This document shows, piece by piece, positions 25,952-54,703 of a stretch of 64,000 nt of DNA (position 1 is its first letter; every line of letters begins with the position of its first letter). A program made the translations under genes and the position numbers. This DNA comes from an uncultured Bacteroidales bacterium. GTDB lineage: Bacteria > Bacteroidota > Bacteroidia > Bacteroidales > Paludibacteraceae. Below the pieces are notes generated by a model. The model did not search any database, was not told the DNA's origin, and worked only from the letters and a program-made list of their open reading frames with translations. The DNA is taken from assembly GCA_900316845.1 (NCBI GenBank), contig ONEG01000006.1:424-64423 (forward strand). Direction: 5' to 3'.

Positions 25952-25977
25952 ACTTATGCGCGTTTAAAATTTTTTTT

Positions 25978-26049
25978 CGGCAAAGGTAATACTTTATTTT
26001 GGGATTAAAAAATAGAAGTTCTTATTAGCCCTAATTAGCCCAATAAAAG
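25978..26049. repeat. cassette junction/promoter element, copy A (contains GCCCTAATTAGCCC)
   Basis: Reads cggcaaaggtaatactttattttgggattaaaaaatagaagttcttattagccctaattagccc. It is homologous to copies at 31392 and 42281. A perfect 16-bp inverted repeat pairs 26005..26020 with 26072..26087. Confidence 0.85.
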
Positions 26050-26153
26050 TTATTTTTTTTCATTTTTTATTAACTTCTATTTTTTAATTTAAAACCTTTT
26101 TATTACTTTTGCGGCGAAAATTCAGTTTTACAATTTAAAATCAGGAGGTAGAT

Positions 26154-26588
26154 ATGGAAAAGAAATTCAGTGAATGGTTAGCAGAAAATTACGGCAAGAC
26201 GGTCACCAAGTCTTTAAAAGGTTCTCAAAAGTGCTTTGAGTCCTTGTCCGCCGATGAGGATCTGAATGACATGTGTCTCATGGAACTGATGGAGCACATG
26301 GCGAACATGGCGGAAAATAACGGCTCTCCAAGACAACAAATCAAGCGCCCAATCATGGCCTTCTACGCCACCGAATTAGGTAATCGGTTGGACATCACTC
26401 CGTTGCAGGTATTCTTGCTCGCGGAGTTTGTAGACCAGTTTCCCGACGATAGTATTGAGACGAAGCAACTGGCAAAGAACCTCGGTTGCAGCAATCTTTC
26501 CATCATGTCATGTTATCAGGATATTGCCGTCCTGCGCGATAAGAAGTATCTCTCCGAGCGCAGATATAATAAAAACAAAGTGGTGTGA
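26154..26588 (+). CDS. N-terminal (winged-helix-like) fragment, possibly the 5' part of the downstream AAA+ ATPase gene
   Basis: Has a TACTTTTG box at 26104..26111 and an AGGAGG 5 nt upstream of the ATG. It ends at a TGA that is in frame with the next ORF. Confidence 0.55.
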   Translation: MEKKFSEWLAENYGKTVTKSLKGSQKCFESLSADEDLNDMCLMELMEHMANMAENNGSPRQQIKRPIMAFYATELGNRLDITPLQVFLLAEFVDQFPDDSIETKQLAKNLGCSNLSIMSCYQDIAVLRDKKYLSERRYNKNKVV

Positions 26589-26660
26589 TACCAGATCCCT
26601 ATCCGTGTCATTACTGCGTTTCAGGCAAACCAAAATGTAGAGCCTTTGGACTATAGCAAT

Positions 26661-27899
26661 ATGAACGGAGATCAGCTGATGGACGAGCTTTTCCAAGTGA
26701 TATCCTCCTATCGGAGTGATGACATCGATATACACGAAGCCTACGAAACCACTTCTGCTATGATTGCAGCCAATATGCAGCTTGGTTTCTGCCGCCAAAT
26801 AAACGAATACTCCCTTTCCAAAGAGAGTTGGATAATTCTTGTCTATGTCTGCACGGGTTACTATTACAGCCCGAAATTTACGATGGATAGTGATGAGTTC
26901 CGGGAGTTTTTTGATATGCGTTGCGGTCTTTCGCAGCTGCGACTTTTCCGCAGTAACAAGCACGAACTGCTCACAAAATCGATTCTAGAACCCGCCGGAG
27001 GAGAACTGGCTAATGCGAATGAGTGGTGCCTTTCACGCCGCGCAGCCAACGATCTGATGAGCGAACTGTGTCCTGTTACGGCGAAAAGCACCAAACAAGG
27101 CGTGATTGATGCGGAAAGTATCGGCAAGAAGGCTCTGTTCTACCCGACAAAGACCACCAGACAGGTTTCTGAGTTGGAGAGTTTGCTCTCGACGGAGAAG
27201 TTCCAACAAGTGCAGGAGAGCTTGGAGGCGCATGGTATGCGCAAAGGTTTCGCGTGCCTTTTCTATGGTACGCCCGGAACAGGAAAGACCGAGACCGTTC
27301 TGCAAATAGCCCGAAAAACGGGCCGCGATATCATGCAGGTAGATATGTCGCAGATGCGCGACAAGTACGTCGGTGAAAGCGAGAAGAACGTGAAGCAGAT
27401 CTTCACGCGTTACCGCCGGATTTGCAAAGAGAGTGATCAGACGCCTATTCTCCTCCTCAATGAAGCGGACGCCCTGCTCGGCGTGCGTATGACGAATGTG
27501 GAGCACTCGGTGGATCAGATGGAGAACACGATGCAGAATATCCTGTTGCAGGAAATGGAGAACTTCGACGGCATCCTGATTGCGACAACCAACCTTACGC
27601 AGAATCTGGATGGAGCGTTCGACCGTCGGTTCCTCTACAAAGTAGAGTTCCTCAAACCCACACCGGAGGAGAGCCGGCATATCTGGCAAGCCATGTTGCC
27701 GGAAATCAGCGAAGAGGATGCTTGGACACTCGCGAAGCAGTATGCTTTCTCCGGCGGCCAGATTGAAAATATTGCCCGCAAACAGATAGTGAACTCTATC
27801 CTCTTTCCTGAGGAAGGCAGAGATCTGAACAAAATCCGCCAGGCTTGTGACAGCGAGTATCTGAACAAAAAACAAACCCGCCCCATCGGCTTTTGCTGA
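26661..27899 (+). CDS. AAA+ ATPase (classic AAA clade)
   Basis: Walker A FYGTPGTGKTE, Walker B ILLLNEADAL, and a second region of homology ending FDRRF. The frame is open back to the TGA at 26586 (TTG at 26646, ATG at 26661). Confidence 0.8.
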   Translation: MNGDQLMDELFQVISSYRSDDIDIHEAYETTSAMIAANMQLGFCRQINEYSLSKESWIILVYVCTGYYYSPKFTMDSDEFREFFDMRCGLSQLRLFRSNKHELLTKSILEPAGGELANANEWCLSRRAANDLMSELCPVTAKSTKQGVIDAESIGKKALFYPTKTTRQVSELESLLSTEKFQQVQESLEAHGMRKGFACLFYGTPGTGKTETVLQIARKTGRDIMQVDMSQMRDKYVGESEKNVKQIFTRYRRICKESDQTPILLLNEADALLGVRMTNVEHSVDQMENTMQNILLQEMENFDGILIATTNLTQNLDGAFDRRFLYKVEFLKPTPEESRHIWQAMLPEISEEDAWTLAKQYAFSGGQIENIARKQIVNSILFPEEGRDLNKIRQACDSEYLNKKQTRPIGFC

Positions 27900-27920: not shown

Positions 27921-28160
27921 TCACGCTAAGAGCATTTCTGCATCGATTGTCTCACAATGGATGATGTCGTGCAGATAGGTTTCCATCTTGGCTCGAGTAG
28001 TCTCATCCATGTGTATTTCCGGCAGGAGAGATAGAATCTCTTCTGCTGTTTTTTTTGCAGAGGTATCATCTACACTATCCGATAGACAGTCATTCACCCC
28101 GCGTAGCAGATACCATAAAAGACCGTTGTTATAAACGACTTGAAGAAGTTCTTTTGTCAT
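27921..28160 (-). CDS. small hypothetical protein (79 aa), paralogous to the N-terminus of the 33071..33658 product
   Basis: ATG at 28160 overlaps the hydrolase stop (ATGA). It shares LLWY...G...LP...DE(T/A)TR motifs with the 195-aa protein. Confidence 0.5.
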   Translation of the reverse strand: MTKELLQVVYNNGLLWYLLRGVNDCLSDSVDDTSAKKTAEEILSLLPEIHMDETTRAKMETYLHDIIHCETIDAEMLLA

Positions 28161-28798
28161 AAGTTTCCAAATAGAATATTCTTGATTTGTTTGGCGGCTT
28201 GTTCGTTGCAGCGATGCCCGAATTTGGCATTCCAATAGATCTCATAGCCCAAGGATTCCAAGATAGCTGCGTTTTTCTTCGAGAACTCACGCCCAATCAG
28301 TTCGTCGTCCGTGGAGAATAATGCAATATTCCGTGTTCAGGGAATAGGCGTATGGGTCTCGCGGAATGTAATAAACTGGCGTATCATCGGTTCGTCAATA
28401 GTATATTCCGTCTCGCCATTCTCCCGTGGTTGCAGATAGGGATGCTTGCCATAGCCAATCTTACGAAGCACCCGCTCTATCTCAATACACGGATTGACGG
28501 CTACTTTGATGGCATTCGGACTGTTGACATACATTGCCAACAATCCGCCCATCGATGTGCCGGCAATCAGAGCCGGCTGGAATGCAGCAACCCACTCATT
28601 CAATATATCTGATGATTCAAACGGGTTATGCGTTATTTCCGGCGACAGCCATTCATAAGCATCCAAACTGCGCGCCAGAGAGGATTTCGTTCCAGACGCC
28701 GCGCTGGATCCTAAGCCGTGAATATATAGTGCGTACGGCTTTTGTGCCGGAGTGCCATAATAGAAAGATTTATTCATTTCATCAAATAACATAAGCAA
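28157..28798 (-). pseudogene. YqiA/YcfP-like alpha/beta hydrolase interrupted by one in-frame TGA (28337..28339)
   Basis: The N-terminal part has YIHGLGSS and the nucleophile elbow GTSMGG. After the TGA the same frame continues TRNIALFSTDDELIG...KFGHRCN, supplying the Asp and His of the triad, and reaches a stop at 28157. Confidence 0.7.
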
Positions 28799-29362: not shown

Positions 29363-29839
29363 TCACTTTTGGCGTTTCTCAAAGCATTTTGTTACTTCCT
29401 GCGGCATGATTTCTTCGTAGCAATCCACGAAGATACGCATGTAATATTCCTGGCTGACAATATGGACAAATACGCTGTCCAGTGCCGATTCGGTGCGATT
29501 CAGTTGCTTAACAAACTCCCCGGAAGCACCTGAGCGCAGAGGCAAAGTTTGCTGATGCAGGTAGGTCTTGGCGTTCTGCAATCGATGCCAGTATCTTGCT
29601 GAATATTCGGGCGGGAAGTTGGGATGTATTTGTGCTCCTATATCTTCCGCCCAGTCGCAGTTGTACGGGCGGTAATAAAGCGTGTCTATCAATGCCCAAT
29701 CTACCGTTGAGCAATTATAAAAGTTCTGCAGAACAGTTTCCGAAGTCTGCTGCTGGCATGGACGGGAACAACTGACCAACACCAATAAGGCAATCAGCAG
29801 AAGTTCCGATACGACTTTTTTTGAAAATTTATAGTTCAT
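29363..29839 (-). CDS. hypothetical lipoprotein
   Basis: The internal Met gives the signal peptide MNYKFSKKVVSELLLIALLVLVSC. Confidence 0.55.
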   Translation of the reverse strand: MNYKFSKKVVSELLLIALLVLVSCSRPCQQQTSETVLQNFYNCSTVDWALIDTLYYRPYNCDWAEDIGAQIHPNFPPEYSARYWHRLQNAKTYLHQQTLPLRSGASGEFVKQLNRTESALDSVFVHIVSQEYYMRIFVDCYEEIMPQEVTKCFEKRQK

Positions 29840-30482
29840 AGGTGTTAATCTTCCCCAAAGGTATATTGCACATTTGTTTTTCCGCACCATTAGGAATAAA
29901 GACTTGTTTCAGGTTCGGGATGTTCGAGAAACTATTATCGCCTATCTCACGCAGAGACGATGGAAAAGTTATTCGTTCCAGTTTGTCATCATACCAGAAT
30001 GCGACTTTTTCTACACGCTTCACTCCATCCGGAATAATGAGTTCTCTACGCCTGAACAGGCTTCGCAGCAAGGTCGTTCCATCTTGAGTCAACACCAACC
30101 CGTCTTGTACTCTGAGATGCGGATTGTGCCTATCAATCGTAATGGAATGCAACTTGGGGCAACAACGGAAATGCCAGTTGAGCAAGTATTGCACCCCTTT
30201 CCCTATATATACACTACGGAGGTTAGGCAGGTGTGTAAATTCATCCTCATCAATATATTCGATTGTATCCGGGAAAACCAAATGCTGCAACGTACGCGGA
30301 CACTTGTATGCCCCAAGTTCCACGGAAGTGATGGCATAACGCACTCCTTCTATATTTACAGAGGAGGGGATTCGGTAAGTCTTGCACCTACCGATATGCC
30401 CATGTTTAATCCAGACGGTATGGTCGTTATCGTCTAATAGATAAACGTATCGACCTATTCTGTATTCTCTCCTTTCTGTCAC
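29829..30482 (-). CDS. BspA-type leucine-rich repeat protein
   Basis: Repeated patterns such as IPSSV..I...AF..C..L..V.FP.SL..IG..AF, e.g. ITFPSSLREIGDNSFSNIPNLKQVFIPNG. Confidence 0.75.
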   Translation of the reverse strand: MTERREYRIGRYVYLLDDNDHTVWIKHGHIGRCKTYRIPSSVNIEGVRYAITSVELGAYKCPRTLQHLVFPDTIEYIDEDEFTHLPNLRSVYIGKGVQYLLNWHFRCCPKLHSITIDRHNPHLRVQDGLVLTQDGTTLLRSLFRRRELIIPDGVKRVEKVAFWYDDKLERITFPSSLREIGDNSFSNIPNLKQVFIPNGAEKQMCNIPLGKINTYEL

Positions 30483-30485
30483 ACT

Positions 30486-31325
30486 TTATTTTCCCCAGCC
30501 GGCATCTTTGAGTTTTTTGACGATCAACTCAGGACTTTCCCATACATCCACATAAGGAATGCCTTCGCAAAGGAATCGTTTGTCTTTTTCCGACAATTCT
30601 TTGGAAAGTAGTCCTATGAGATACAAGCGGCTCCCTTTGTATTGGTGAGATTCATAGCAATTCAGCTCAATTTCCTCAACATACGTAACTGCTGCAGCAT
30701 GCAAAATAATGGACTTGCTCCAGAATTCATCCCGCCGGCTCCCATCATTGTTAAAACGAGGCGCCTCTGTCAATCTAACCAACTTGCCATCAGCCGGCTC
30801 TTCATTGGGTTGAGGAGCACGGAAGAACAGATGATTGTTTTTCGCCTTGTCTGTGCCTTCTATCTTCACATTCTCGTAATAGTTGTTGATATAAAAATCA
30901 TAATTCTTAGCTACTATGGAGTCTCTTTCGTCAATGCGCAGTAATTCTATTTCATCTTCAAATCGAATCTCTTTTCTGCAATACTCATCCCCTAAAGATA
31001 TACCGTATTTGTCAGGATTATAACTATTGGCCCATTTGAAAATGTAATACGTTTTTCTCCACCATCTAAAATCTATTTTCTTCTCTCCGCCTTTGGTAAA
31101 AATCACCCCGTCTGACTCCTTTACTGCAGCCTCGTACTTACTACCGATACTGTAGAGCGGGGAACAAAAAACCTTTGCATTCTTATATTCATTGCGAAAC
31201 TCCTTTTCTATTTCTATTACCGAATAAGGAGAGATGCGCTGATCTATGCCATCCACTTGGCAGATGTCCTTACTACACGCATCATAATTGAGCAGCTTAG
31301 ATGGGATTTTTAGTAGATTTTCCAT
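30486..31325 (-). CDS. hypothetical protein (279 aa)
   Basis: First ORF downstream of cassette promoter copy B. No motif recognised. Confidence 0.55.
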   Translation of the reverse strand: MENLLKIPSKLLNYDACSKDICQVDGIDQRISPYSVIEIEKEFRNEYKNAKVFCSPLYSIGSKYEAAVKESDGVIFTKGGEKKIDFRWWRKTYYIFKWANSYNPDKYGISLGDEYCRKEIRFEDEIELLRIDERDSIVAKNYDFYINNYYENVKIEGTDKAKNNHLFFRAPQPNEEPADGKLVRLTEAPRFNNDGSRRDEFWSKSIILHAAAVTYVEEIELNCYESHQYKGSRLYLIGLLSKELSEKDKRFLCEGIPYVDVWESPELIVKKLKDAGWGK

Positions 31326-31391
31326 ATGCTATTAAATTTTTAAAGTTTCGCCCCCTTCTTTGTTCGGCATTGGGGCACTTTCCGATTTTGC

Positions 31392-31477
31392 GCGGCAAAG
31401 ATAATACTTTATTTTCAAATAAAAAAATAGAAGTTAATCTTTTTTGCAATAAGCCCTAATTAGCCATAAAGGTATTA
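31392..31477. repeat. cassette junction/promoter element, copy B
   Basis: Reads gcggcaaagataatactttattttcaaataaaaaaatagaagttaatcttttttgcaataagccctaattagccataaaggtatta. The -7 box TATCTTTG is the complement of 31396..31403. Confidence 0.9.
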
Positions 31478-31501
31478 ATTTTGCACTTTTAATGAAAAAT
31501 A

Positions 31502-31533
31502 TTTGCACAATTCATTTTATTTTTGTAATTTTG
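31502..31533 (+). promoter_or_regulatory. Bacteroidota-type promoter (TTTG-N20-TAATTTTG) for abiEi/abiEii
   Basis: TTTG lies at 31502..31505 and TAATTTTG at 31526..31533, with the ATG at 31595. Confidence 0.65.
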
Positions 31534-31594
31534 CAGCGGATTTGTTTCTATAGTGTAACAATATCATCACATTACAGAAATAAAACGCGCATTT

Positions 31595-32212
31595 ATGACT
31601 TATCAATCGTTTTATAATCAGTGGCATCATTTGGCTTGTTTTTCTATCACACAAGTGAGGGCAATATATCCGACATTTAACCGCCGGAACTATTCCGAAT
31701 GGCAGAAAGCGGGCTATATCGTTCCTTTGCGTCAAGGATGGTACGCCTTTGCGGATTATGTGAACAAGCCGGATTACGCACGCTATTTAGCGTCAAAGAT
31801 CTATACCCCATCGTATATCAGCCTGCATACCGCCTTGTCCTTTTACGGCATTATCCCGGAAGCAGTGGTAGCCATTACGAGTATCACTACGCGCAAAACA
31901 GCTCAGTTTGAGAACGTCTTTGCGTCTTACAGCTACCAAACAATCAAGCCTTCTCTGTTCTGGGGATATGAGCCCAAGCAACTATCCGACGGAAAGACCT
32001 ATCTATTAGCCACGCCGGAGAAAGCGCTGATTGACCTGCTTTACCTCTATCCGCAGTATTCGACGGAAGAAGAGATGCGTGAGTTGCGTCTGGATGAAGA
32101 TTTCATGCACAACGAGTTAGATAAGGAACGGCTTATCGAATATTCTACTCGCATTGGAAGTCCGATAATCACCAAGCGGGTACAACTCTTGCTCAAAACA
32201 CACGGATTATGA
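31595..32212 (+). CDS. AbiEi-like antitoxin / transcriptional regulator (type IV TA)
   Basis: The N-terminal wHTH-like region and the YISLHTALSFYGIIPE motif are typical of AbiEi_4-type proteins. It has a 4-nt ATGA overlap with the next gene. Confidence 0.8.
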   Translation: MTYQSFYNQWHHLACFSITQVRAIYPTFNRRNYSEWQKAGYIVPLRQGWYAFADYVNKPDYARYLASKIYTPSYISLHTALSFYGIIPEAVVAITSITTRKTAQFENVFASYSYQTIKPSLFWGYEPKQLSDGKTYLLATPEKALIDLLYLYPQYSTEEEMRELRLDEDFMHNELDKERLIEYSTRIGSPIITKRVQLLLKTHGL

Positions 32213-32991
32213 TTGATTTAACATACATACGCGGTTTCTATCCGCCGCAGATTGCCAATAATGCCAACTTTCAGAAGCATTTGCTCAAGGAATACATTGA
32301 GTGTCTGGCAATAGAATGGATTTCACAGTCGGCGTGGTCGGACAAGTTGGCTTTTATCGGCGGCACGAACTTACGGCTGATACAGGGTATTGACCGTTTC
32401 TCCGAAGATTTGGATTTTGATTGCAAGAACCTGAGCCAAGAGGATTTCGTCCAAATGACGGATGGTTTAATGCGCTATCTGACGCTACAGGGTTTAACGG
32501 TCGAGGCACGCGATAAAGAGAATCCGAACTTGACGGCTTTCCGTCGAAATGTCTATTTTCCGGAACTGCTCTTCTCGCTCCAACTAACGGGGCATCGGGA
32601 AGAACGTTTCTTAATGAAGATCGAGGCGCAAGACCAAGGTATCAGTTATCCGCGTGAAATGGCGACAATCAGTCGCTTAGGTTTTTATTTCCCAGTTCCT
32701 GTTCCAACGATTAGCATTCTCTTGTCCATGAAACTATCGGCTCTGTTGACTCGTCAGAAAGGCCGTGATTTTTACGATGTCCTTTTCTTGTGGCAACGCA
32801 CAAAGCCGGATTACGCATTCCTAAAGCAACGCCACGGCATAGAAAACGAGGAGCAGTTACGTACGCAACTCCAGGAAACCGTCGCTCATACGGACCTCAA
32901 AACCAAGCAGCGTGATTTTGAGCATCTGCTCTTTGAGCCCCGCAAAAGCGAGCAGATTCTTCATTTCCTGGAGATAATGGGAATAGCGTAG
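32209..32991 (+). CDS. AbiEii/AbiGii nucleotidyltransferase toxin (DUF1814)
   Basis: Contains the nucleotidyltransferase motif FIGGTNLRLIQGIDRFSEDLDFD. Confidence 0.85.
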   Translation: MIDLTYIRGFYPPQIANNANFQKHLLKEYIECLAIEWISQSAWSDKLAFIGGTNLRLIQGIDRFSEDLDFDCKNLSQEDFVQMTDGLMRYLTLQGLTVEARDKENPNLTAFRRNVYFPELLFSLQLTGHREERFLMKIEAQDQGISYPREMATISRLGFYFPVPVPTISILLSMKLSALLTRQKGRDFYDVLFLWQRTKPDYAFLKQRHGIENEEQLRTQLQETVAHTDLKTKQRDFEHLLFEPRKSEQILHFLEIMGIA

Positions 32992-33024
32992 AATTTTGGA
33001 AACGATTTCAAAGATCACATTTTA

Positions 33025-33062
33025 TTTTTTGCAATTCACCCTAATTAGCCATAAAGGCATTA
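33025..33062. repeat. cassette junction element, partial copy D (direct repeat of 31440..31477)
   Basis: ttttttgcaattcaccctaattagccataaaggcatta matches ttttttgcaataagccctaattagccataaaggtatta at 34 of 38 positions. Confidence 0.9.
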
Positions 33063-33070
33063 GGAGGATA

Positions 33071-33658
33071 CTATTTCAATAGTTTCTCATACTTGCTGAT
33101 TGTGTCGTCAAAATACCACAACTTGCCATTGAGTGCTGGGTCATCGGACTTCTGCAGCATCTCCCGTATCGCGAGTGTAACGTCATATGCGGATTGAAGT
33201 TCTTCCTTAGGAGTTCTGGCATCGCAATAGCAATCCAAGCCGTTCGCGAGAATCCATAACAAGTCTATATCATCATCGGGAAAGCGAATAGAAGCCAATC
33301 GTTTTAACAACTCCGGAGTGATTATTCCCGAATCTTCTTTTTCTTCTCCATTTGAGAAAGAAAGGAATCTCTCTCTGTAGGAATAGTACGGGCTTATAGA
33401 CTTCCTGGACATGGCTAAATCTGTTCCGAAATAATCCTGAATTTCCTTCATTTGCCGGACTAACTGCAAGCGGGTTGCTTCGTCAATAGAGGTGTATGGT
33501 AGTACTTGCAGGAAATCATTAATCATTTCTATGGCCTCGAGTTCATTCTTATAGGTGATAATCATATCCGCGTCAAAACCTTCCACCATATACCATAGCA
33601 ACTTGCGCTGATACAAGTTGTCTATGAACTCTTTTATTTTCTGCTCAAACTCTGTCAT
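33071..33658 (-). CDS. hypothetical protein (195 aa)
   Basis: Last ORF of the co-directional cluster. Its N-terminal ~70 aa are paralogous to the 27921..28160 product. Confidence 0.55.
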   Translation of the reverse strand: MTEFEQKIKEFIDNLYQRKLLWYMVEGFDADMIITYKNELEAIEMINDFLQVLPYTSIDEATRLQLVRQMKEIQDYFGTDLAMSRKSISPYYSYRERFLSFSNGEEKEDSGIITPELLKRLASIRFPDDDIDLLWILANGLDCYCDARTPKEELQSAYDVTLAIREMLQKSDDPALNGKLWYFDDTISKYEKLLK

Positions 33659-42249: not shown

Positions 42250-42280
42250 AAATTTTCTCGTTTAAAATTTTAGTATTCAC

Positions 42281-42360
42281 GCTGCAAAGATAATACTTTA
42301 TTTTCAAATTAAAAAATAGAAGTTATTCTTTTTTTCATTTTGCCATAATTAGCCATAAAG
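42281..42360. repeat. cassette junction/promoter element, copy C
   Basis: Reads gctgcaaagataatactttattttcaaattaaaaaatagaagttattctttttttcattttgccataattagccataaag. By hand alignment it is about 87% identical to copy B. The -7 TATCTTTG is the complement of 42285..42292. Confidence 0.9.
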
Positions 42361-42421
42361 TTTTACTTACTTGCTTACGAGCGACATACGACTCACATAC
42401 GAGACGATAGCGACAAACTAT

Positions 42422-44155: not shown

Positions 44156-44265
44156 AATATTATTATTATTTATAAAAGTTTTGCCTACTCTTTTTCGGAT
44201 TTTCGGCTTCCTCCATTAATTGTATTTTTAGGTTGTTTCTGCATCTATATAGTCAAAATCAGACT

Positions 44266-45252: not shown

Positions 45253-45259
45253 GTTTTTT

Positions 45260-45340
45260 GCGACAAAGATACAATAAAAAATCAAAAGACGCAAAGGTTT
45301 GACCCTTTACGCCCTAATTAGCCCCAATTTAACGAGTGAA
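45260..45340. repeat. cassette junction/promoter element, copy E (family 2)
   Basis: Reads gcgacaaagatacaat...cgcaaaggtttgaccctttacgccctaattagccccaatttaacgagtgaa. The 51-nt core at 45290..45340 matches 47181..47231 at 50 of 51 positions. Confidence 0.9.
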
Positions 45341-45693: not shown

Positions 45694-46008
45694 TTAGGAG
45701 AACATGTTCATCCATTCGAGCCAAGCGAAACCGGCCGTTCCAAGGATAGCCACTACAACTACATAATAAACGATGTAGATTGCGCCGAAAATGATACCAA
45801 TGATGGAAGTAATCCGTCCCGCATTGAGCATGCCATAACCGGAATAGATAGCGGGATTAGCGTGATAAGCAGCCAAGCCTTTGTTAGCCAATACAAGACC
45901 TACAATGCCACAAATGAGGCCTACAAAAAAACATCCGAAAACGAGGGAACAAATTCCCAGCACTAATGCCGCTACGGCATAAGGTGCATTTTGTTGCTGA
46001 GTTTCCAT
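45694..46008 (-). CDS. DUF4190-like small membrane protein (CCC-motif type)
   Basis: Two TM helices, with AALVLGICSLVFGCFFVGLICGIVGLVLA containing three Cys. Confidence 0.65.
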   Translation of the reverse strand: METQQQNAPYAVAALVLGICSLVFGCFFVGLICGIVGLVLANKGLAAYHANPAIYSGYGMLNAGRITSIIGIIFGAIYIVYYVVVVAILGTAGFAWLEWMNMFS

Positions 46009-46038
46009 AAATAGAATAATTAAATTTGATTGGTTATT

Positions 46039-46845
46039 TTACATTTGAGCCGCAGCGGAAGCCATTTTTGCTGCAATTTTCTGGAATCTTGTTGCTTGTG
46101 CGACGCTCATGTTATCGTTTGCAGAGGACAACTTTTCATTCAGTTCATTGCATTCCTGCATTAATGACATCATTTCTGAATAAGCATTAGCATCACCCGC
46201 ATTCACTTTCTTCAAAACTTTGATATACTGATCCATATAGCTCTCATACGAATCCAATATGGCATCCCAATCTTCCGAAGAGCCAGAATTCTCCATATCT
46301 TCATCATCCAAATCTGCCTCTGCCTCTAAGATGTCACGTTCAAGTGCAGACAGGAAATCCTCCTCTTCCGGTTCATCTACATGCAATTCTATGTCGCAAG
46401 AAGCAAAGGACTGTAATACTTCTTTCACTTGTTTGCTATCTGCAAGTATGCACGTAAATTTAACCTTAACCACATCTCCTATTGATGCACTTATAAGGTC
46501 TTTATAGGCAGATGTCATATTTTCGGCGGCAAACTCTACATCCTTGTGATTGATCTCAATATCACGCCCTTCTTTATCTTTTGCTTCAAGAATGAATTTT
46601 TCTACGATATAATCGGGATTTTCATATCTTCTAACTATCTTTAAATCAATCGTTGTTGAAAGTGCGTTTTCTTCCACCGAAATAGTATATGTGCCCGGAA
46701 CAGGTTCAAAGAAATCGTTACTGCCGTACACATCCCCAATATCCTCTGCGTCATCTGTTGTGATCACAAAGGTAGTGCTTTTACTGGAGCAACCGGTTAA
46801 AATAATTGCAAATGCAATTACAAACAAACTAAAATACTTTTTCAT
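46039..46845 (-). CDS. hypothetical lipoprotein with acidic linker and helical C-terminal domain
   Basis: Signal peptide MKKYFSLFVIAFAIILTGC. Confidence 0.6.
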   Translation of the reverse strand: MKKYFSLFVIAFAIILTGCSSKSTTFVITTDDAEDIGDVYGSNDFFEPVPGTYTISVEENALSTTIDLKIVRRYENPDYIVEKFILEAKDKEGRDIEINHKDVEFAAENMTSAYKDLISASIGDVVKVKFTCILADSKQVKEVLQSFASCDIELHVDEPEEEDFLSALERDILEAEADLDDEDMENSGSSEDWDAILDSYESYMDQYIKVLKKVNAGDANAYSEMMSLMQECNELNEKLSSANDNMSVAQATRFQKIAAKMASAAAQM

Positions 46846-46857
46846 ATTGATTAAAGA

Positions 46858-47076
46858 TTAAAAATTTGCTTCCAAAGTGATTTTGTGAAAACGTTCCAAT
46901 TGTTCCATTGTTAGTTCGTTTTCGTCTAACTTTTCCATAATTTTTAACGCTTCTACCTGATCTCCCTTCTTACATGCTTTTTCATACTGATCAAGCAACG
47001 AATCGTTAGAAGGAGTACAAGCAACCATAGCTAAACAAAATAATGCCATGACTGCAAAAATTAACTTTTTTTTCAT
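46858..47076 (-). CDS. small lipoprotein (72 aa)
   Basis: Signal peptide MKKKLIFAVMALFCLAMVAC. It is the first ORF after cassette promoter copy F. Confidence 0.55.
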   Translation of the reverse strand: MKKKLIFAVMALFCLAMVACTPSNDSLLDQYEKACKKGDQVEALKIMEKLDENELTMEQLERFHKITLEANF

Positions 47077-47147
47077 ATTATTAATAGTTTTAAAGTTTTG
47101 CCTACTCTTTTAAGGATTTTCGGCATCTTCCATTTCATTGACAATTT

Positions 47148-47231
47148 GCGAGCGCAAAGATACAACAAAATAACGAAAGGCGCAAAGGTTTGACCCTTTA
47201 CGCCCTAATTAGCCCCATTTTAACGAGTGAA
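47148..47231. repeat. cassette junction/promoter element, copy F (family 2)
   Basis: Reads gcgagcgcaaagatacaac...cgcaaaggtttgaccctttacgccctaattagccccattttaacgagtgaa. The -7 TATCTTTG is the complement of 47155..47162. Confidence 0.9.
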
Positions 47232-47288
47232 GGAATTAACGAATGAACGAATTAACGAATGAACGAATGAACGAATGAACGAATGAAG
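47221..47288. repeat. tandem array of GAATGAAC / AATTAACG units at the right edge of the island
   Basis: Reads taacgagtgaaggaattaacgaatgaacgaattaacgaatgaacgaatgaacgaatgaacgaatgaaggg. Confidence 0.9.
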
Positions 47289-47322
47289 GGTGTTTAATGT
47301 TTAGATGGAGATGGAAGAAGTA

Positions 47323-48534
47323 TTACTCGGCAAGCGGTTTTTGCTGAATAATCATTGTATCGCCGTTAAGGTTTACATACATTATCGGATAATCTTTATA
47401 GATGATTTCCAAGCGCGGGAGGTCACGGGTATAGGTAACAAGGTATTGCTTTTGCAGTTGTTCCTCATATTGAGGATAGGACTTCGCTAATTTGTCTCGC
47501 GTTTGGTGCATCTGCGTAGCATAGCGATTTGTCATAGTGATGCCTTCATTCATACTCTTTACCGGCATATTCCTGAGCGAATCGGAATAAGTGCGGTACA
47601 AGGCGCTATACTGCCGTTCTGCCCTACTCTTTACATCCAGCCAAACGGAGTCAACAACAGGTTTTGCAGGAACAATAACCACCACTGTGTCGGTCTGTAT
47701 CTCTATTGGTTGCACCGTTTCCTTCGGGCTTGGCAAGAATACTATGACAAATGCCACAATAGCAGCTAACGCAAGAGCCAAAGGCAGTAACCATCTCATC
47801 CGCCAATAGCGGTGAAGCGCAGCACGGACTTGGCGGACGGAAGTGTAACGGCTTCTATCGGAGGCAAGGCAACGACGGATAATTGGTTTAGCCGAATGCG
47901 GGAAAAGAAGTGCCAACATCTTGCCTAAGGCATAGATGTCCCGCTCAGGCAACAAGGTATCGGACGGCAGTTGCTCCGGGACGCTGATTGACGGCGATGT
48001 GCCGATATTCTTAGCTATATAGGCTTCATTATCCGCAAAGCCGAAATCAATCAGCCGCACATGATTGCCGGAGTCGTTAATAAGGATGTTAGAAGGCTTG
48101 AGATCACCGTGGACTATCTGGCGTTCATGGAGGAAAACCAAGGCTTCCATTAATTCGTCCGCTACGCGCCGACGCTCTGTACAGGAGGGCTTTTCTGCTA
48201 TGAATTTATCCAATGGGCGACCATGGATGTATTCCATGAGGATAGCTCGCCCTAACTGCGGATCGTCCACCATGGATATTGTCTGAACCACATAGATTGA
48301 GTCCAGACGGTGCATGATCTCAAACTCACGTTCCAACAGGAGTTGATTGCGAGTCCGTTCGCCTTCGGTGGGCTTGGCAGCCTTCAGAACGACCCATTTG
48401 CCGCCCATTTGCGCACGATAAATCAGATTGTGCCCGGAGTCAGACAACAACTCATAATCCGTAAGGTGATCCACGCCTAATTCTTGCGAACTAAGCGGAC
48501 GGATAGGACCCGATGTGAACGAATTTGTATCCAT
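47323..48534 (-). CDS. serine/threonine protein kinase with TM segment and C-terminal extracytoplasmic domain
   Basis: Catalytic loop HGDLKPSNILI and the DFG motif LIDFGFA. The ATG at 48534 lies downstream of a minus-strand TACTTTTG box. Confidence 0.85.
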   Translation of the reverse strand: MDTNSFTSGPIRPLSSQELGVDHLTDYELLSDSGHNLIYRAQMGGKWVVLKAAKPTEGERTRNQLLLEREFEIMHRLDSIYVVQTISMVDDPQLGRAILMEYIHGRPLDKFIAEKPSCTERRRVADELMEALVFLHERQIVHGDLKPSNILINDSGNHVRLIDFGFADNEAYIAKNIGTSPSISVPEQLPSDTLLPERDIYALGKMLALLFPHSAKPIIRRCLASDRSRYTSVRQVRAALHRYWRMRWLLPLALALAAIVAFVIVFLPSPKETVQPIEIQTDTVVVIVPAKPVVDSVWLDVKSRAERQYSALYRTYSDSLRNMPVKSMNEGITMTNRYATQMHQTRDKLAKSYPQYEEQLQKQYLVTYTRDLPRLEIIYKDYPIMYVNLNGDTMIIQQKPLAE

Positions 48535-48542
48535 TGACGGTG

Positions 48543-48590
48543 CAAAAGTACAAAAAAATTTGCGTATATGCAAATAATTTTATAATTTTG
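48543..48590. promoter_or_regulatory. divergent promoter pair sharing a palindromic -33 region
   Basis: TACTTTTG is the complement of 48543..48550 (kinase). TTTGCGTATATGCAAA lies at 48559..48574 and TAATTTTG at 48583..48590 (gene at 48607). Confidence 0.6.
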
Positions 48591-48606
48591 CACAAATTTT
48601 TGAATT

Positions 48607-49146
48607 ATGGACACATCCTATCCATCCAATAGTATCGCTATCTGCCAACTGAAGAAGGCAGTTGAAGCACGATTCGGACATGTTCCATCCGGCCCCGCCG
48701 ACTTCGGAGAGTTGAGTATCGCTATCTCTAAAACGACCGGTGAACGCATCAGTCCGGACACTCTCAGCCGTATTTGGGGCTACAAAAAAGGCTATTCTTC
48801 CGTGCGGCAGAGCACGGTGCGTGTGTTGGAACAATACGCAAAAGCGAACGAAGAATCGGACTTCGTTCATACAACCGCTATTTATGCCGACGAATGCCAG
48901 AAAGGTGATCGCGTGCGTATTGCATGGCTGCCGGACCGCGTTTGTGTGCTGAGTTATCTGGGGAACTACCGATGGCGATTGGAGGAAGCTATCAACTGCA
49001 AACTGCATGTCGGAGACACATTCTCTTGCCGCACGATAGCAAAATGTGAAATACTGGTAGTGGATCACGTGGAAACGGCAAACGGCTCATATGAATGTTA
49101 CCGCATGGGGAACAAAAACGGGCTCACGATAGTAGAAAAACTATAA
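48607..49146 (+). CDS. hypothetical protein (179 aa)
   Basis: ORF with core-like composition and its own promoter. No motif recognised. Confidence 0.6.
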   Translation: MDTSYPSNSIAICQLKKAVEARFGHVPSGPADFGELSIAISKTTGERISPDTLSRIWGYKKGYSSVRQSTVRVLEQYAKANEESDFVHTTAIYADECQKGDRVRIAWLPDRVCVLSYLGNYRWRLEEAINCKLHVGDTFSCRTIAKCEILVVDHVETANGSYECYRMGNKNGLTIVEKL

Positions 49147-49169
49147 TAGAATTGATAAAACGCATAGAT

Positions 49170-51176
49170 ATGCAAGACGAACGGTATTTACGGCTATTAA
49201 GCGAGAAGTTTCCGAACTCGCAAGCGGTTGTGACTGAGTTGATTAACCTGCGCGCTATCCTCTCTCTGCCCAAAGGGACAGAGCATTTCGTGAGCGACCT
49301 GCACGGCGAGTCGATGGCTTTCATCCACATGATCAAAAACGCTTCCGGCGTGGTACGGAAGAAAGTGGATGAGGTCTATGGCGCGACGCTCTCCGAAGAG
49401 GAGAAAAGGGCGATCTGTGCGCTCATTTACTACCCCGACGAGCGGATCGAGTTGATAAAGAAGTACTACGACGGAGACAAAGACGAGAACTACACCACGC
49501 TCTTTACGCTCAATGCGCAGATATCGAACCTGCCGACTTTGGAAGAATGGTACCGGACGAGGCTGCATCAGGTGGTGAATATCGCGCGGGCGGTGACCAT
49601 CAAATACAGCCGCTCGAAAGTACATCGGCTCCTGCCGAAAGGCTATGAATACGTCATCGCCGAGTTGCTGCACGAGTCGAACCTGGAGCAGCACGACCGC
49701 CAGACGTATTACAACGCCATCATCGATGCCATCATCGAGACCGGTTGTGCGGATCAGCTGATCATCGCTATCTCGTATCTGATACACGGTCTGACGATCG
49801 ACACGCTGCATATTGTCGGAGATATTTTTGACAGAGGACCCGGTGCTTCGAAGATTCTGGACGTGCTCTCCACCGTGCGGGATTATGACATCCAGTGGGG
49901 CAATCACGATATCGAATGGATGGGTGCGATGGCAGGCAACATGGCGTTGTTGGCGACCGTGCTGCGCGTCTCTATCCGTTACGCCAATATCGAGACCCTC
50001 GAAGAGGGTTACGGCATCAACCTGCTGCCGCTGGCGAACTTCGCGATGACCGTTTACGGGGACGACCCGTGTACTATCTGGCAGACCAAAGATTTTGAGA
50101 ATAACCCGCGTCTGACGCGCTCGGCACAACTGATGGCGAAGATGCACAAGGCTATCTCCATCATTCAGTTCAAGCTCGAAGGACAGACCGTCAAGCGTCA
50201 TCCGGAGTGGCACATGGATCATCGGGCGGTATTGGATCATTTGAGATTTGAGGATGGACATCTGACATTTAACGGTCAGCCTTTGCTGGACACCAACCTG
50301 CCGACTGTTGATCCGAAAGACCCTTACGCGCTGAACCAGTACGAGCAGGATCTGATGAACCAGCTATGGCGTTCGTTCCGTAAGTCCGAGAAGATGCAAC
50401 GGCACCTGAAGATGCTGTATGAGCACGGATCGCTGTACTTGGTTCGGAACGGTTTCCTACTCTACCACGCGGCTATTCCGCTGAATGCCGATGGGTCTTT
50501 TGCCGAGGCCGACGTATGCGGCAAACGCGTGAAAGGCAAGGCGCTTATGGACCGCACGGACGAAGTGATCCGCATGGCGTATTACGGTGAAGGCAAAGAG
50601 AAAGAGGATGCGCTGGACTATATGTTATACCTCTGGGAAGGCGAGTTCTCTCCGCTGTACCACAAAGACAAGATGACCACTTTTGAGCGGTATTTTCTGG
50701 CAGACAAAGAGACCTGGGCGGAGAAGAAAGGCGCTTATTTCACGTTAGCAGACGACGAGAAGATCTGCGAGCAGATACTCAAAGAGTTCGGTCTCAACCC
50801 TGCGACGGGGCGTATTATTAACGGACACGTACCCGTTCGCACAATAAAAGGAGAAACACCTATCCGCGCAAACGGTAAGCGTTTTGTGATTGACGGAGGG
50901 TTCAGCAAGCCTTACCAGGAGAAGACCGGCATCGCCGGTTACACGCTGATCTACAACAGTCATGGCATCCAGCTCGTGGAGCATGAGTCGTTCGAGAGCC
51001 GCGAGCAAGCGATCCTCTCCGGTTCGGACATCCATAGCCGGACTTTGCTGCAGGATTTCTCCGGCAGCCGGCTGCGTATCAAAGATACGGACAAAGGCAA
51101 AGAGCTTTTGGAGCAATTAGAGGCGTTAGAGCAACTGCTGCATGCTTACCGTTCCGGTATCTTCCGCGAGCAATAA
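49170..51176 (+). CDS. fbp: fructose-1,6-bisphosphatase class 3
   Basis: Contains YLRLLSEKFPNSQAVVTELINLRAILSLPKGTEHFVSDLHGE and IVGDIFDRGP. The ATG at 49170 is preferred over the longer ORF start. Confidence 0.93.
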   Translation: MQDERYLRLLSEKFPNSQAVVTELINLRAILSLPKGTEHFVSDLHGESMAFIHMIKNASGVVRKKVDEVYGATLSEEEKRAICALIYYPDERIELIKKYYDGDKDENYTTLFTLNAQISNLPTLEEWYRTRLHQVVNIARAVTIKYSRSKVHRLLPKGYEYVIAELLHESNLEQHDRQTYYNAIIDAIIETGCADQLIIAISYLIHGLTIDTLHIVGDIFDRGPGASKILDVLSTVRDYDIQWGNHDIEWMGAMAGNMALLATVLRVSIRYANIETLEEGYGINLLPLANFAMTVYGDDPCTIWQTKDFENNPRLTRSAQLMAKMHKAISIIQFKLEGQTVKRHPEWHMDHRAVLDHLRFEDGHLTFNGQPLLDTNLPTVDPKDPYALNQYEQDLMNQLWRSFRKSEKMQRHLKMLYEHGSLYLVRNGFLLYHAAIPLNADGSFAEADVCGKRVKGKALMDRTDEVIRMAYYGEGKEKEDALDYMLYLWEGEFSPLYHKDKMTTFERYFLADKETWAEKKGAYFTLADDEKICEQILKEFGLNPATGRIINGHVPVRTIKGETPIRANGKRFVIDGGFSKPYQEKTGIAGYTLIYNSHGIQLVEHESFESREQAILSGSDIHSRTLLQDFSGSRLRIKDTDKGKELLEQLEALEQLLHAYRSGIFREQ

Positions 51177-51203
51177 CTGACAAAATGGCAGAACTGACAG
51201 CTT

Positions 51204-51218
51204 TGGCACAGAGTTTGC
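51204..51218 (+). promoter_or_regulatory. sigma-54 type -24/-12 element (TGGCAC-N5-TTGC) upstream of groES
   Basis: Reads tggcacagagtttgc, with GG at 51205..51206 and GC at 51217..51218 (10 nt between). It lies 70 nt upstream of the groES ATG. The same bases form an inverted repeat TTGGCA-N7-TGCCAA. Confidence 0.45.
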
Positions 51219-51227
51219 CAATGATGA

Positions 51228-51267
51228 AAGCGGAAAGTCGAAAGTAAAAAGTCGAAAGTAGAAAGAC
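51228..51267. repeat. degenerate tandem repeat (GAAAGT-like units) in the groES leader
   Basis: Reads aagcggaaagtcgaaagtaaaaagtcgaaagtagaaagac. Confidence 0.7.
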
Positions 51268-51287
51268 AATTTTAAAACACAGATATT

Positions 51288-51563
51288 ATGAGCAAGATTC
51301 AACCATTAGGAGACCGCGTGCTGGTAAAAGCAGCGGCTTCAGAGGAAAAGACCGTAGGCGGTATTATCATTCCTGATAACGCCAAAGAAAAGCCCAACCG
51401 CGGCGAAGTAATAGCCGTAGGAGCAGGAACCAAAGACGAGCCGATGCTTCTACAACCGGGAGACCAGATCCTATTCGGCAAATGGGCCGGTTCGGATTTT
51501 GAGTTCGACGGCGAGAAATACCAGATGATGAAACAAAGCGATATCTGGGCGGTGATTAAGTAA
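51288..51563 (+). CDS. groES: co-chaperonin GroES
   Basis: Reads [30 protein letters not shown] and lies directly upstream of groEL. Confidence 0.97.
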
Positions 51564-51568
51564 TTTAG

Positions 51569-53230
<1,662 letters not shown>

Positions 53231-53258
53231 AAAAGACGCCTTCGGGCGTCTTTTTTTT
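53231..53258 (+). terminator. rho-independent terminator of groESL
   Basis: agacgcc (53234..53240) pairs with ggcgtct (53245..53251) across loop ttcg, followed by a T8 run. Confidence 0.9.
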
Positions 53259-53260
53259 AT

Positions 53261-53274
53261 TGTGTGTGTGTGTG
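53261..53274. repeat. (TG)7 dinucleotide microsatellite
   Basis: Reads tgtgtgtgtgtgtg, between the groEL terminator and the dnaA stop. Confidence 0.95.
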
Positions 53275-53278
53275 GAGT

Positions 53279-54649
53279 TTATGCGTTGAGTTGGGATTGG
53301 ATCTGTGCGACGGCTTGACGCAGAACAGGATCGTACTCCAGCTGGTCACGCATGATCGCAAGGGAATGCAGGACGGTTGCGTGCGTACGGCGACCCATCT
53401 TAAAACCAATCTCCGTGAGGGAGGAATCGGTTAACTCTTTAGTCAAGTAGATGGCTACGTGGCGTGCACGGGTGATCTCGCGTGAGCGGTTCTGGCTGAG
53501 GATCGCTTTCTCCGGCAGACCATAATGTTCTGCGACCGCCCCAATGACATCTCCGATGGCGATCTTACGCGGCTGGATAGCGACGATATGGCTGACAACC
53601 TGCTCTGCCAGAGCGAGATCTATCTCACGATCTGTGAGCGTGGAGTGCGCCAAGAGGGATGCAAGAATACCTTCCAAGTCACGAACGGAGTTGCGGACGT
53701 TCGTTGCAATGAAATCCACCACTTCGTCCGAGAGCGATATGCCGTCACGGCGCATCTTGGAGAGGAGAATATTCTTACGCAGCTGGTAGTCCGGATGCTT
53801 GATCTCCGCGGAGAGACCCCATTTGAAACGGGTGAGGAGTCGCTCCTCGATATCCTTGAGCTCAATCGGCGGCCTATCGGACGTGAGGATCAGCTGTTTG
53901 CGGCTCTGCTGGAGATAGTTGAAGATGTGGAAGAAGGTATCCTGGGTTCCTTTGAGACCCGCGAAATACTGAATATCATCCACGATCAGCACATCTACCG
54001 ACTGATAGAAATTGAGGAAATCGGGGATGCGGTTGCTCTTCGCTGCGTCCTGATACTGGAGCTTGAAGGTGTTCGCACTCACGTAGAGCACACGCGCATG
54101 AGGATTGAGCAGTTGAACCTGATTTCCGATGGCGTTTGCCAGATGGGTCTTTCCTACTCCGCTACCGCCATAGATGAAGAGCGGGTTGAAAGCAGTGTAG
54201 CCCGGTTGCTTGGCAATCGCAATGCCGGCTGTACGCGCCAGTTTATTCGGTTCTCCCGCTACAAACGAATCAAAGGTATAATAGGTATTGAGTTGGGAGT
54301 CGAAGTTATCCGTACGGATCGGCGCGTTATTAATTATATGGTTCGCCTGCGCTTGTGCGCCCGCGGAAGGAAGCATGGTTCCTGCTCCGGAGGTGGAGTC
54401 AATCAAGACGCGGTACTCGAGATGGGTTCCCTGTCCGAAGACGCGGATGATGGTTGCGGAGAGGAGAGATATATAGTTCTCCTCTATATATTCCGCGACG
54501 AATTGCGATTTCACTTGAAGGACAAGAATGCCATTCTCAAACTGCAACGGCACAATGGGTGCGAACCATGTTTGGTAGGCACTGCTTGTCAAGTTGTCGG
54601 CGAGAATAGCCTGACACCGACCCCATTGTTGTTGTAGTGTTTCTGTCAT
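53279..54649 (-). CDS. dnaA: chromosomal replication initiator DnaA
   Basis: Walker A GGSGVGKTHL, Walker B LIVDDIQYF and a C-terminal DNA-binding region RARHVAIYLTKELT. Confidence 0.97.
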   Translation of the reverse strand: MTETLQQQWGRCQAILADNLTSSAYQTWFAPIVPLQFENGILVLQVKSQFVAEYIEENYISLLSATIIRVFGQGTHLEYRVLIDSTSGAGTMLPSAGAQAQANHIINNAPIRTDNFDSQLNTYYTFDSFVAGEPNKLARTAGIAIAKQPGYTAFNPLFIYGGSGVGKTHLANAIGNQVQLLNPHARVLYVSANTFKLQYQDAAKSNRIPDFLNFYQSVDVLIVDDIQYFAGLKGTQDTFFHIFNYLQQSRKQLILTSDRPPIELKDIEERLLTRFKWGLSAEIKHPDYQLRKNILLSKMRRDGISLSDEVVDFIATNVRNSVRDLEGILASLLAHSTLTDREIDLALAEQVVSHIVAIQPRKIAIGDVIGAVAEHYGLPEKAILSQNRSREITRARHVAIYLTKELTDSSLTEIGFKMGRRTHATVLHSLAIMRDQLEYDPVLRQAVAQIQSQLNA

Positions 54650-54703
54650 TTTTTTCGGCGAAAAACTGTTCGCAAAATGGTGCTCTCAGAGCGAAATCGA
54701 GTG

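Follow-up and report, generated by a model that had tools for sequence, protein, structure and literature searches.

An AbiE unit bounded by junction modules in an exchangeable gene array of a rumen Bacteroidales bacterium: a case for homology-dependent shuffling

Introduction

Defence islands vary and, to our knowledge, the entry and exit of single systems is mostly unexplained outside integrons and mobile elements. Here we describe an AbiE gene pair that lies between two 38-nt direct repeats in the genome of an uncultured rumen Bacteroidales bacterium of the family Paludibacteraceae. The stretch of DNA analysed, referred to below as the window, comprises 64,000 nucleotides (GenBank assembly GCA_900316845.1, contig ONEG01000006.1, positions 424 to 64,423). 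Among the systems that resemble this locus are the pdif modules of Acinetobacter plasmids, which are bounded by short XerC/XerD sites, often carry toxin-antitoxin pairs and have no linked recombinase gene; the sites themselves are dif-like dyads of 28 bp whose orientation alternates.

Sedentary chromosomal integrons store defence cassettes (bioRxiv 10.1101/2024.07.02.601686). In the Bacteroidales, rAID-1 arrays are defined by a XerD-like recombinase gene at their 5′ end, and their authors compare them with integrons (Ross et al. 2019; bioRxiv 10.1101/471110). In T4-type phages, PeSL (promoter-early/stem-loop) cassettes are modules repeated between the non-essential genes of hyperplastic regions, where insertions, deletions and replacements are bounded by the modules; recombination between modules has been shown experimentally with no dedicated recombinase, and mini-circles have been demonstrated (Arbiol et al. 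2010, PMC2839356).

On a modest balance of probability, we regard the AbiE pair as a self-contained exchangeable unit in an array with no linked recombinase, gained through homology-dependent recombination of the PeSL kind and not through site-specific insertion at the short core sequence that both repeats contain.

The AbiE unit and its flanking repeats

The two repeats (Table 1) share their orientation and agree at 34 of 38 positions, as a first-pass annotation of the window had noted. They differ immediately left of the core, where the left copy has AAG and the right copy TCA, and at 31473/33058 (T vs C). Also borne out is the earlier claim that the intervening 1547 bp (31478-33024) contain nothing but abiEi, abiEii and their promoter, the remaining ORFs being short overlapping frames. 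The promoter is assigned tentatively from the Bacteroides consensus; the leader, which begins with GGATTTGTTTC, is conserved across all AbiE units of the genus. The start of abiEii overlaps the stop of abiEi (ATGA, 32209-32212), with abiEi immediately upstream in one operon. The gene pair, the overlap and the strong profile matches for both proteins are those of AbiE type IV toxin-antitoxin and abortive infection systems; against NCBIfam, the AbiEi protein gives a weak match only. Judged from its sequence, the cargo appears to be an ordinary AbiE pair with nothing unusual about it.

The same annotation had called AbiE the only plus-strand module within a run of minus-strand genes. This holds for 27.9-48.6 kb and fails for the whole of the low-GC island in which the unit lies, since a second plus-strand module of HTH/AAA+ genes is found at 26154-27899, beside the core copy at 26029. 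Searches of plasmid and phage collections returned no blastn match to the AbiE unit. A transposon, insertion sequence or miniature inverted-repeat transposable element was considered and rejected: among the inverted repeats reported, none pairs the ends of the unit, no transposase ORF lies inside it, and the flanking repeats are 38 nt long and non-identical, unlike the short target duplication of such elements.

Anatomy, subtypes and distribution of the junction modules

The core, CCCTAATTAGCC, occurs six times in the window at up to one mismatch, always on the plus strand (starts at 26029, 31454, 33039, 42343, 45312 and 47203), against an expectation of 0.21. The 13-mer GCCCTAATTAGCC has four copies in the whole 2.34-Mb genome, all inside the island, and BLAST searches of the same genome with the junction modules gave matches only within the island. 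A repeat so far above expectation and so confined cannot plausibly be put down to chance. Within any one array the cores have a single orientation, and the only dyad in the core is its 8-bp CTAATTAG centre. Enrichment of the core is limited to the genus of the window, where it is found in 11 of 82 genomes, often as same-strand clusters on one contig; elsewhere in 400 genomes of the family, its frequency is that of the background.

Each core copy, both in this genome and in its relatives, forms the upstream edge of a conserved module, which on the minus strand reads core, spacer, Bacteroides-type -7 box (TAnnTTTG) and a conserved leader up to the start codon. It is this whole module of ~150 nt that makes up the conserved block. 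Core and -7 box are always separated by one of two distances, 40 nt in type A and the 26029 copy and 50 nt in type B. Three types can be told apart, their promoters and terminators being predicted ones. Type A consists of the core, a 10-bp terminator-like hairpin, a T-tract and the promoter, in this order; in type B, an AT-rich spacer stands between core and promoter, and folding of type B as single-stranded DNA (ssDNA) is no better than that of shuffled sequence (z = -0.06 and +0.06). Type C resembles type B minus ~26-29 nt, has no canonical -7 box and folds into a marginal small hairpin only. Types B and C share 35-38 nt, whereas the core is the sole block common to types A and B (and to types A and C), all that lies between core and promoter being different. 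The 38-nt repeats around AbiE are simply the stretch common to types B and C, the left copy belonging to a complete type B module (31326-31477) that is 87-95% identical to copies in genomes G371, G380, G418 and G459.

A type A copy lies 3′ of a Ser/Thr kinase gene in 11/11 kinase-bearing loci fetched, mostly directly behind it, and further type A copies occur inside arrays. Rfam recognised no known motif at the junction, its only matches being leaders of the DUF805b family elsewhere in the island. These DUF805b RNA motifs (49 and 48 bits), at 44182-44216 and 47099-47133 on the minus strand, lie in unit leaders and stand just downstream of junction promoters.

This anatomy bears on the view that the repeats are purely regulatory, in which the core would be an operator or upstream element and the presence or absence of AbiE would reflect vertical descent and unrelated deletions. 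The two fixed spacings differ by one helical turn and hold in three junction architectures; the core stands between divergent promoters at 26029 and 31454; the module runs through the leader to the ATG; and the arrangement is fixed within the species. Type C, however, keeps the core with no canonical -7 box, and the comparisons between genomes that follow make a regulatory role an improbable account of the whole.

Exchange of units between genomes

We collected 56 non-redundant junction copies. Their left part is kept, and their right side falls into 25 classes that diverge at the core or within ~11 nt of it. Looking for an empty junction in relatives had been put forward as a check on insertion, and such a junction exists: on a rumen metagenome contig (L039), the 279-aa homologue (79% amino acid identity) is followed directly by a complete type B module, one core and the 195-aa homologue (92%). 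AbiE is missing at the 195-aa gene as well in L037, L047, L051 and G380, where this gene adjoins a single type B junction. In G418, this site is filled by an insert of 221 bp, which consists of a promoter remnant and a terminator and has type B plus core at one end and type C plus core at the other.

The AbiE unit was also sought and found elsewhere. The same unit with the same ends stands beside other neighbours in G388, where it is 94% identical at the nucleotide level, has both junctions and another right flank and lacks the 279-aa gene, and in G459, where it lies next to other genes and its type C element is truncated; L050 likewise has the unit with other neighbours. Type C plus core ends further cargo too, namely a PDC-S01 ATPase unit (G371, L035) and another unit (L043). 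Just inside its junction copies, the ATPase unit of G371 has inverted repeats of 15 nt on its two sides, ATATTGGATTACCGC and GCGGTAATCCAATAT (L006, 2866-2880 and 4366-4380), and the mini-insert of G418 retains a degenerate copy of this inverted repeat.

Unit order is permuted in G380 (DUF2779 gene, 279-aa gene, 195-aa gene, Sel1 gene). A second breakpoint falls at the B module's ATG-side edge, and the core has been lost at some junctions, as at that of the 279-aa gene in G380 and in G459. Units of the island are 88-98% identical between genomes, as against 57-79% for the kinase and FBPase genes there, which in G388 are undetectable at the DNA level; unit identity so far above that of core genes indicates that the units move between species. 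The permuted order, the excess of unit identity and the coincidence of insert boundaries with the junction in several independent comparisons all tell against a purely regulatory role of the repeats. To judge from these comparisons, AbiE forms a unit of its own that can be exchanged and has a junction copy at either end.

The same right flank can be found behind types B and C, and never behind both type A and types B/C. The difference between AAG on the left and TCA or TCG on the right is found in both the window and L040, TCG being the form usual in type C. A difference that is both shared and typical of the subtypes argues that the repeats derive from two parental junctions and not from a target duplication. 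For the exact AbiEii protein and for the exact 195-aa protein, all 24 contigs read for each have the arrangement of the window.

Site-specific insertion and the search for a recombinase

The first-pass annotation had proposed that a circular cassette inserted site-specifically at a CCCTAATTAGCC site. The geometry of the locus and the existence of empty and refilled sites agree with this proposal, whose site-specific part fares less well. In the version considered here, a circular AbiE cassette bearing type C and the core would have recombined with a resident core by means of a recombinase encoded in trans, for example one of two Xer-like enzymes. The core, a conserved and partly palindromic 12-13-mer centred on CTAATTAG, keeps a fixed orientation in every array; homology ends at or beside it; it alone is common to types A and B; and on three cargos or more, type C plus core acts as a site carried by the cassette would. 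Such an event is compatible with the geometry, the empty site and the alternative occupancy alike.

Two Xer-like tyrosine recombinase genes are present in 5/5 array-bearing genomes checked. Inside and next to the arrays examined, recombinase genes are absent. The tyrosine recombinase family PF00589 gave no match on the array contigs of five genomes, and no tyrosine-recombinase ORF was found in 603 kb of fetched loci plus the 95-kb contig C32. Genes for serine recombinases (resolvase family) are missing from the array contigs of the five genomes searched; these enzymes are absent altogether from G388 and G371 and broken in the genome of the window. A type C-like 16-mer within a recombinase gene on contig C36 was dismissed as a chance match in coding sequence.

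Further points weigh against a site-specific event. No exchange between types A and B was seen, and not all breakpoints are in the core, some being at the module's ATG edge, at the core-less junction of the 279-aa gene in G380 and at the truncated type C element of G459. The sites are not dif-like, all of them are in direct orientation, and no fold of the attC type is apparent. Finally, AbiE is found at sites that have no core. Recombination at the core by a trans-encoded enzyme is thus a possibility we take seriously and nevertheless hold to be doubtful.

AbiE units at core-less sites

AbiE DNA is present in 54/266 genomes of the genus, mostly at core-less sites, such as that downstream of the pyruvate phosphate dikinase (PPDK) gene. 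At unit ends 3′ of abiEii, in arrays with AbiE that lie downstream of PPDK in other species, a second boundary motif, ATTATTGCCGATTATTAAGATTC, recurs (L023, L026, L028, L029, L030), sometimes in three copies ~105 nt apart; this motif may correspond to the CCCTAATTAGCC core in diverged form.

Two of these units, each from a species other than that of the window, have direct repeats of their own. In G003 (L022), 41-nt repeats at 1430-1470 and 2981-3021 are 88% identical and spaced by 1551 nt; in G551 (L024), 35-nt repeats at 1479-1513 and 3054-3088 are 94% identical and spaced by 1575 nt. In both, the AbiE part starts exactly at the leader GGATTTGTTTC, and the repeat on the right is a core gene's own resident promoter: that of an ABC ATPase gene in G003, that of PPDK in G551. 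AbiE-free relatives have one copy of that same promoter at the ABC gene. At PPDK, the relatives examined have one promoter, which is similar only near the -7 box and the leader.

These cases speak for a target-duplicating insertion, for example by replication template switching or microhomology-mediated repair, in which 35-45 nt of local sequence would be copied twice and the flanking repeats would be local sequence throughout. Besides the duplicated resident promoters, the single promoter copy in relatives (with the limited similarity noted at PPDK) and the exact start at the leader, the repeat lengths of 35, 38 and 41 nt are alike. In the window, however, the positions that distinguish the two repeats are conserved from lineage to lineage and characteristic of types B and C; the type C element that precedes the right repeat also ends other cargos, which points to two parental junctions; and the left boundary of the AbiE unit varies between sites. 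A duplication of the target is therefore very unlikely to account for the window.

The G003 unit retains the tail specific to type C with no core, which suggests that it probably came from a junction context and that the core is not needed for insertion. For G003 and G551, either promoters serve as general landing pads, through their shared -7 region and subsequent gene conversion, or a target-duplicating process is at work. That the AbiE promoter is a captured copy of the ABC-gene promoter was considered and rejected: outside G003, the resemblance amounts to the general Bacteroidota promoter consensus only.

A homology-dependent route

The array starts 3′ of a conserved kinase gene near dnaA, with a junction module heading each unit. 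The left repeat belongs to the resident type B junction of the 279-aa-gene operon, and the right repeat to a type C junction, which is promoter-less and would travel with its cargo. In the course of events that we favour, the AbiE unit would have been gained by recombination inside the stretch shared by types B and C, and lost or never gained elsewhere. The likeliest route would be RecA-type recombination acting on DNA passed between species of the genus, either as a Campbell-type entry of a circularised unit or as a double crossover anchored in the ~150-nt B module and the 38 nt.

Several observations lead us to prefer homology-dependent exchange. The whole ~150-nt module is conserved and has a breakpoint at its ATG edge, some junctions (G380, G459) have lost the core, flanks are shared between types B and C and never with type A, and the repeats stem from two parental junctions. 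Both this mechanism and the role it leaves to the core are our interpretation of these patterns. Its phasing of 40 or 50 nt and its position between divergent promoters point to a part for the core in promoter control, which would explain its conservation with no recombinase; within the promoter module, it is more likely to bind a protein than to serve for crossover.

It is important to point out what speaks against exchange by homology. At 35-38 nt, the shared stretch is close to the minimum that RecA needs for efficient recombination. The 12-13-nt core is kept between types A and B amid divergent surroundings, so that it would itself be under selection and could be a recombinase site. The argument for dependence on homology draws on just three or four flank classes with several members. 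Within the species no polymorphism was seen, the 24 contigs with the exact proteins being alike, and there was no sign of current activity. The duplicated resident promoters around AbiE in G003 and G551 are not explained by simple homologous exchange between junctions.

The island and its genes

The array is a 22-kb defence/immunity island of low GC content (~25-48.5 kb; 30-46% GC vs ~52% in the flanks), which lies 5 kb from dnaA and abuts the minimum of the cumulative GC skew (~46-47 kb). The minus-strand units of the island are co-oriented with leftward replication, and AbiE is not (window 46000-54700). Cargo of the island includes three GmrSD-like genes, a DUF2779 nuclease gene, the AbiE pair and an AAA+ ATPase gene, together with genes for Sel1, LRR and WG-repeat proteins and lipoproteins. 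The host comes from the rumen, and the relatives that bear the element are metagenome-assembled genomes (MAGs) from the rumen, from pig gut and of the UBA series.

Table 1. Features of the AbiE locus and of the junctions of the island, in coordinates of the window; promoter and terminator labels are predictions
Feature	Position	Strand	Description
Core copy 26029-26040	25976..26123		Flanked by divergent promoter copies (49-nt inverted repeat)
279-aa gene	30486..31325	-	First gene behind the type B junction
Complete type B module heading the 279-aa-gene operon	31326..31477	-	Core, 50-nt AT-rich spacer, -7 box TATCTTTG (complement 31396-31403), leader to ATG at 31325
Left 38-nt repeat TTTTTTGCAATAAGCCCTAATTAGCCATAAAGGTATTA	31440..31477	+	Core-proximal part of type B junction: T-run, GCAAT, core 31454-31465, ATAAAGGTATTA
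Putative abiE promoter and leader	31478..31594	+	-33 TTTG 31502-31505; -7 TAATTTTG 31527-31534
abiEi	31595..32212	+	Antitoxin and transcriptional regulator, 205 aa; PADLOC AbiEi E = 1.5e-73
abiEii	32209..32991	+	Nucleotidyltransferase toxin, 260 aa; Pfam PF08843 (DUF1814) E = 2.3e-20; PADLOC AbiEii E = 8e-100
Type C-specific left part ATTTCAAAGATCACATTTTA	33005..33024	+	Also ends other cargo in G371, L035, G418, L043
Right 38-nt repeat TTTTTTGCAATTCACCCTAATTAGCCATAAAGGCATTA	33025..33062	+	Core-proximal part of type C junction, core 33039-33050
195-aa gene	33071..33658	-	3′ end abuts right repeat; resident flank of insertion site
Paralogous type B junction, core CCATAATTAGCC 42343-42354	42280..42366	+	Between 577-aa GmrSD-like gene and 112-aa gene; unoccupied; 90% over 81 nt
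Type A junction, core 45312-45323	45257..45340	+	Core, 10-bp terminator-like hairpin, promoter
Type A junction, core 47203-47214	47144..47235	+	Directly 3′ of the conserved kinase gene; array head in every genome examined
Ser/Thr protein kinase gene, conserved	47323..48573	-	Flanks the array with a divergent 179-aa gene (48607-49146) in 11/11 kinase-bearing loci fetched

The 279-aa gene is replaceable, being absent from G388 and L050 and located elsewhere in G380. The kinase that heads the array is similar to the kinase domains of two defence proteins, PD-T4-6 and mad6 (PADLOC E = 1e-24 to 1e-26) and is kept throughout the genus together with its 179-aa partner, a protein with no domain match. 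About 60 nt of the region between these two genes (48539-48610) come from a dispersed repeat family, of which dozens of copies in both orientations are present in every genus genome searched.

Three genes of the island are split here: the AAA+ ATPase gene (26154-27899) and a hydrolase gene (28157-28798) each by an in-frame TGA, and the LRR/175-aa gene into overlapping frames (29363-30482). G388 has each of the three as one uninterrupted ORF (581, 208 and 356 aa). The splits are real because the same ones are found in independent metagenome contigs (L003).

Comparison with known systems

We found no description of this junction or array type in the literature. Its assignment to integrons or clusters of attC sites lacking integron-integrases (CALINs), to rAID-1 arrays or to dif modules was considered and rejected, since the defining features of each are missing. 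The likeness to integrons and CALINs lies in co-oriented units, a repeated separating site, content that varies between relatives, cargo of defence and toxin-antitoxin genes and a cassette-borne site type (C) that pairs with resident sites (B). What sets the array apart is that it has no IntI, no attC hairpin and no R/L boxes, and that its cargo can stand in either orientation. Integron cassettes, moreover, are mostly promoter-less and read from a common promoter, whereas every unit here has a -7 box of its own that lies 40 or 50 nt from the core and reads away from it; the AbiE and ATPase units carry their own predicted promoters.

With rAID-1 arrays, the island has in common its low GC content, co-oriented genes, repetitive intergenic sequences and small proteins of the Sel1/LRR type. 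It differs in that the gene at its head encodes a Ser/Thr kinase and not a XerD-like recombinase, and in that its cargo consists mostly of phage-defence genes (GmrSD-like, AbiE, PDC-S01). Like pdif modules, the units are discrete, bounded by short sites and devoid of a linked recombinase; unlike pdif sites, the sites here are in direct orientation and not dif-like.

A more far-reaching proposal, which we put forward tentatively and think rather unlikely, is that the junction is a dual-purpose 'express-and-capture' site, the basis of a genus-wide platform for the capture of defence and toxin-antitoxin genes with no linked recombinase. A trans-encoded Xer-like or promoter-bound factor would bind the core, and AbiE units would land at promoters time and again, leaving local repeats of 35-41 nt. 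Should the core prove to be a recombinase site, this would amount to a new site-specific capture system.

Overall, the array appears to work most like the shuffling of PeSL cassettes. Here too, insertions, deletions and replacements between relatives are bounded by junction modules, and the type A junction combines a predicted terminator-like hairpin with a predicted promoter; the array differs from PeSLs in its place on a bacterial chromosome, in the additional invariant 13-nt core and in a type B junction that has no stable hairpin. In this locus, the limits of what is exchanged are visible at single-nucleotide resolution, a short promoter module delimits the units, and the AbiE unit, the ATPase unit and other genes have been shuffled among species of a single gut genus. 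Were exchange mediated by the module itself, this would explain the patchwork of defence clusters in Bacteroidota and provide a testable rule for the boundaries of cassettes in metagenomes; regulatory DNA would then double as a substrate for recombination, as it does in the PeSLs of T4-type phages.

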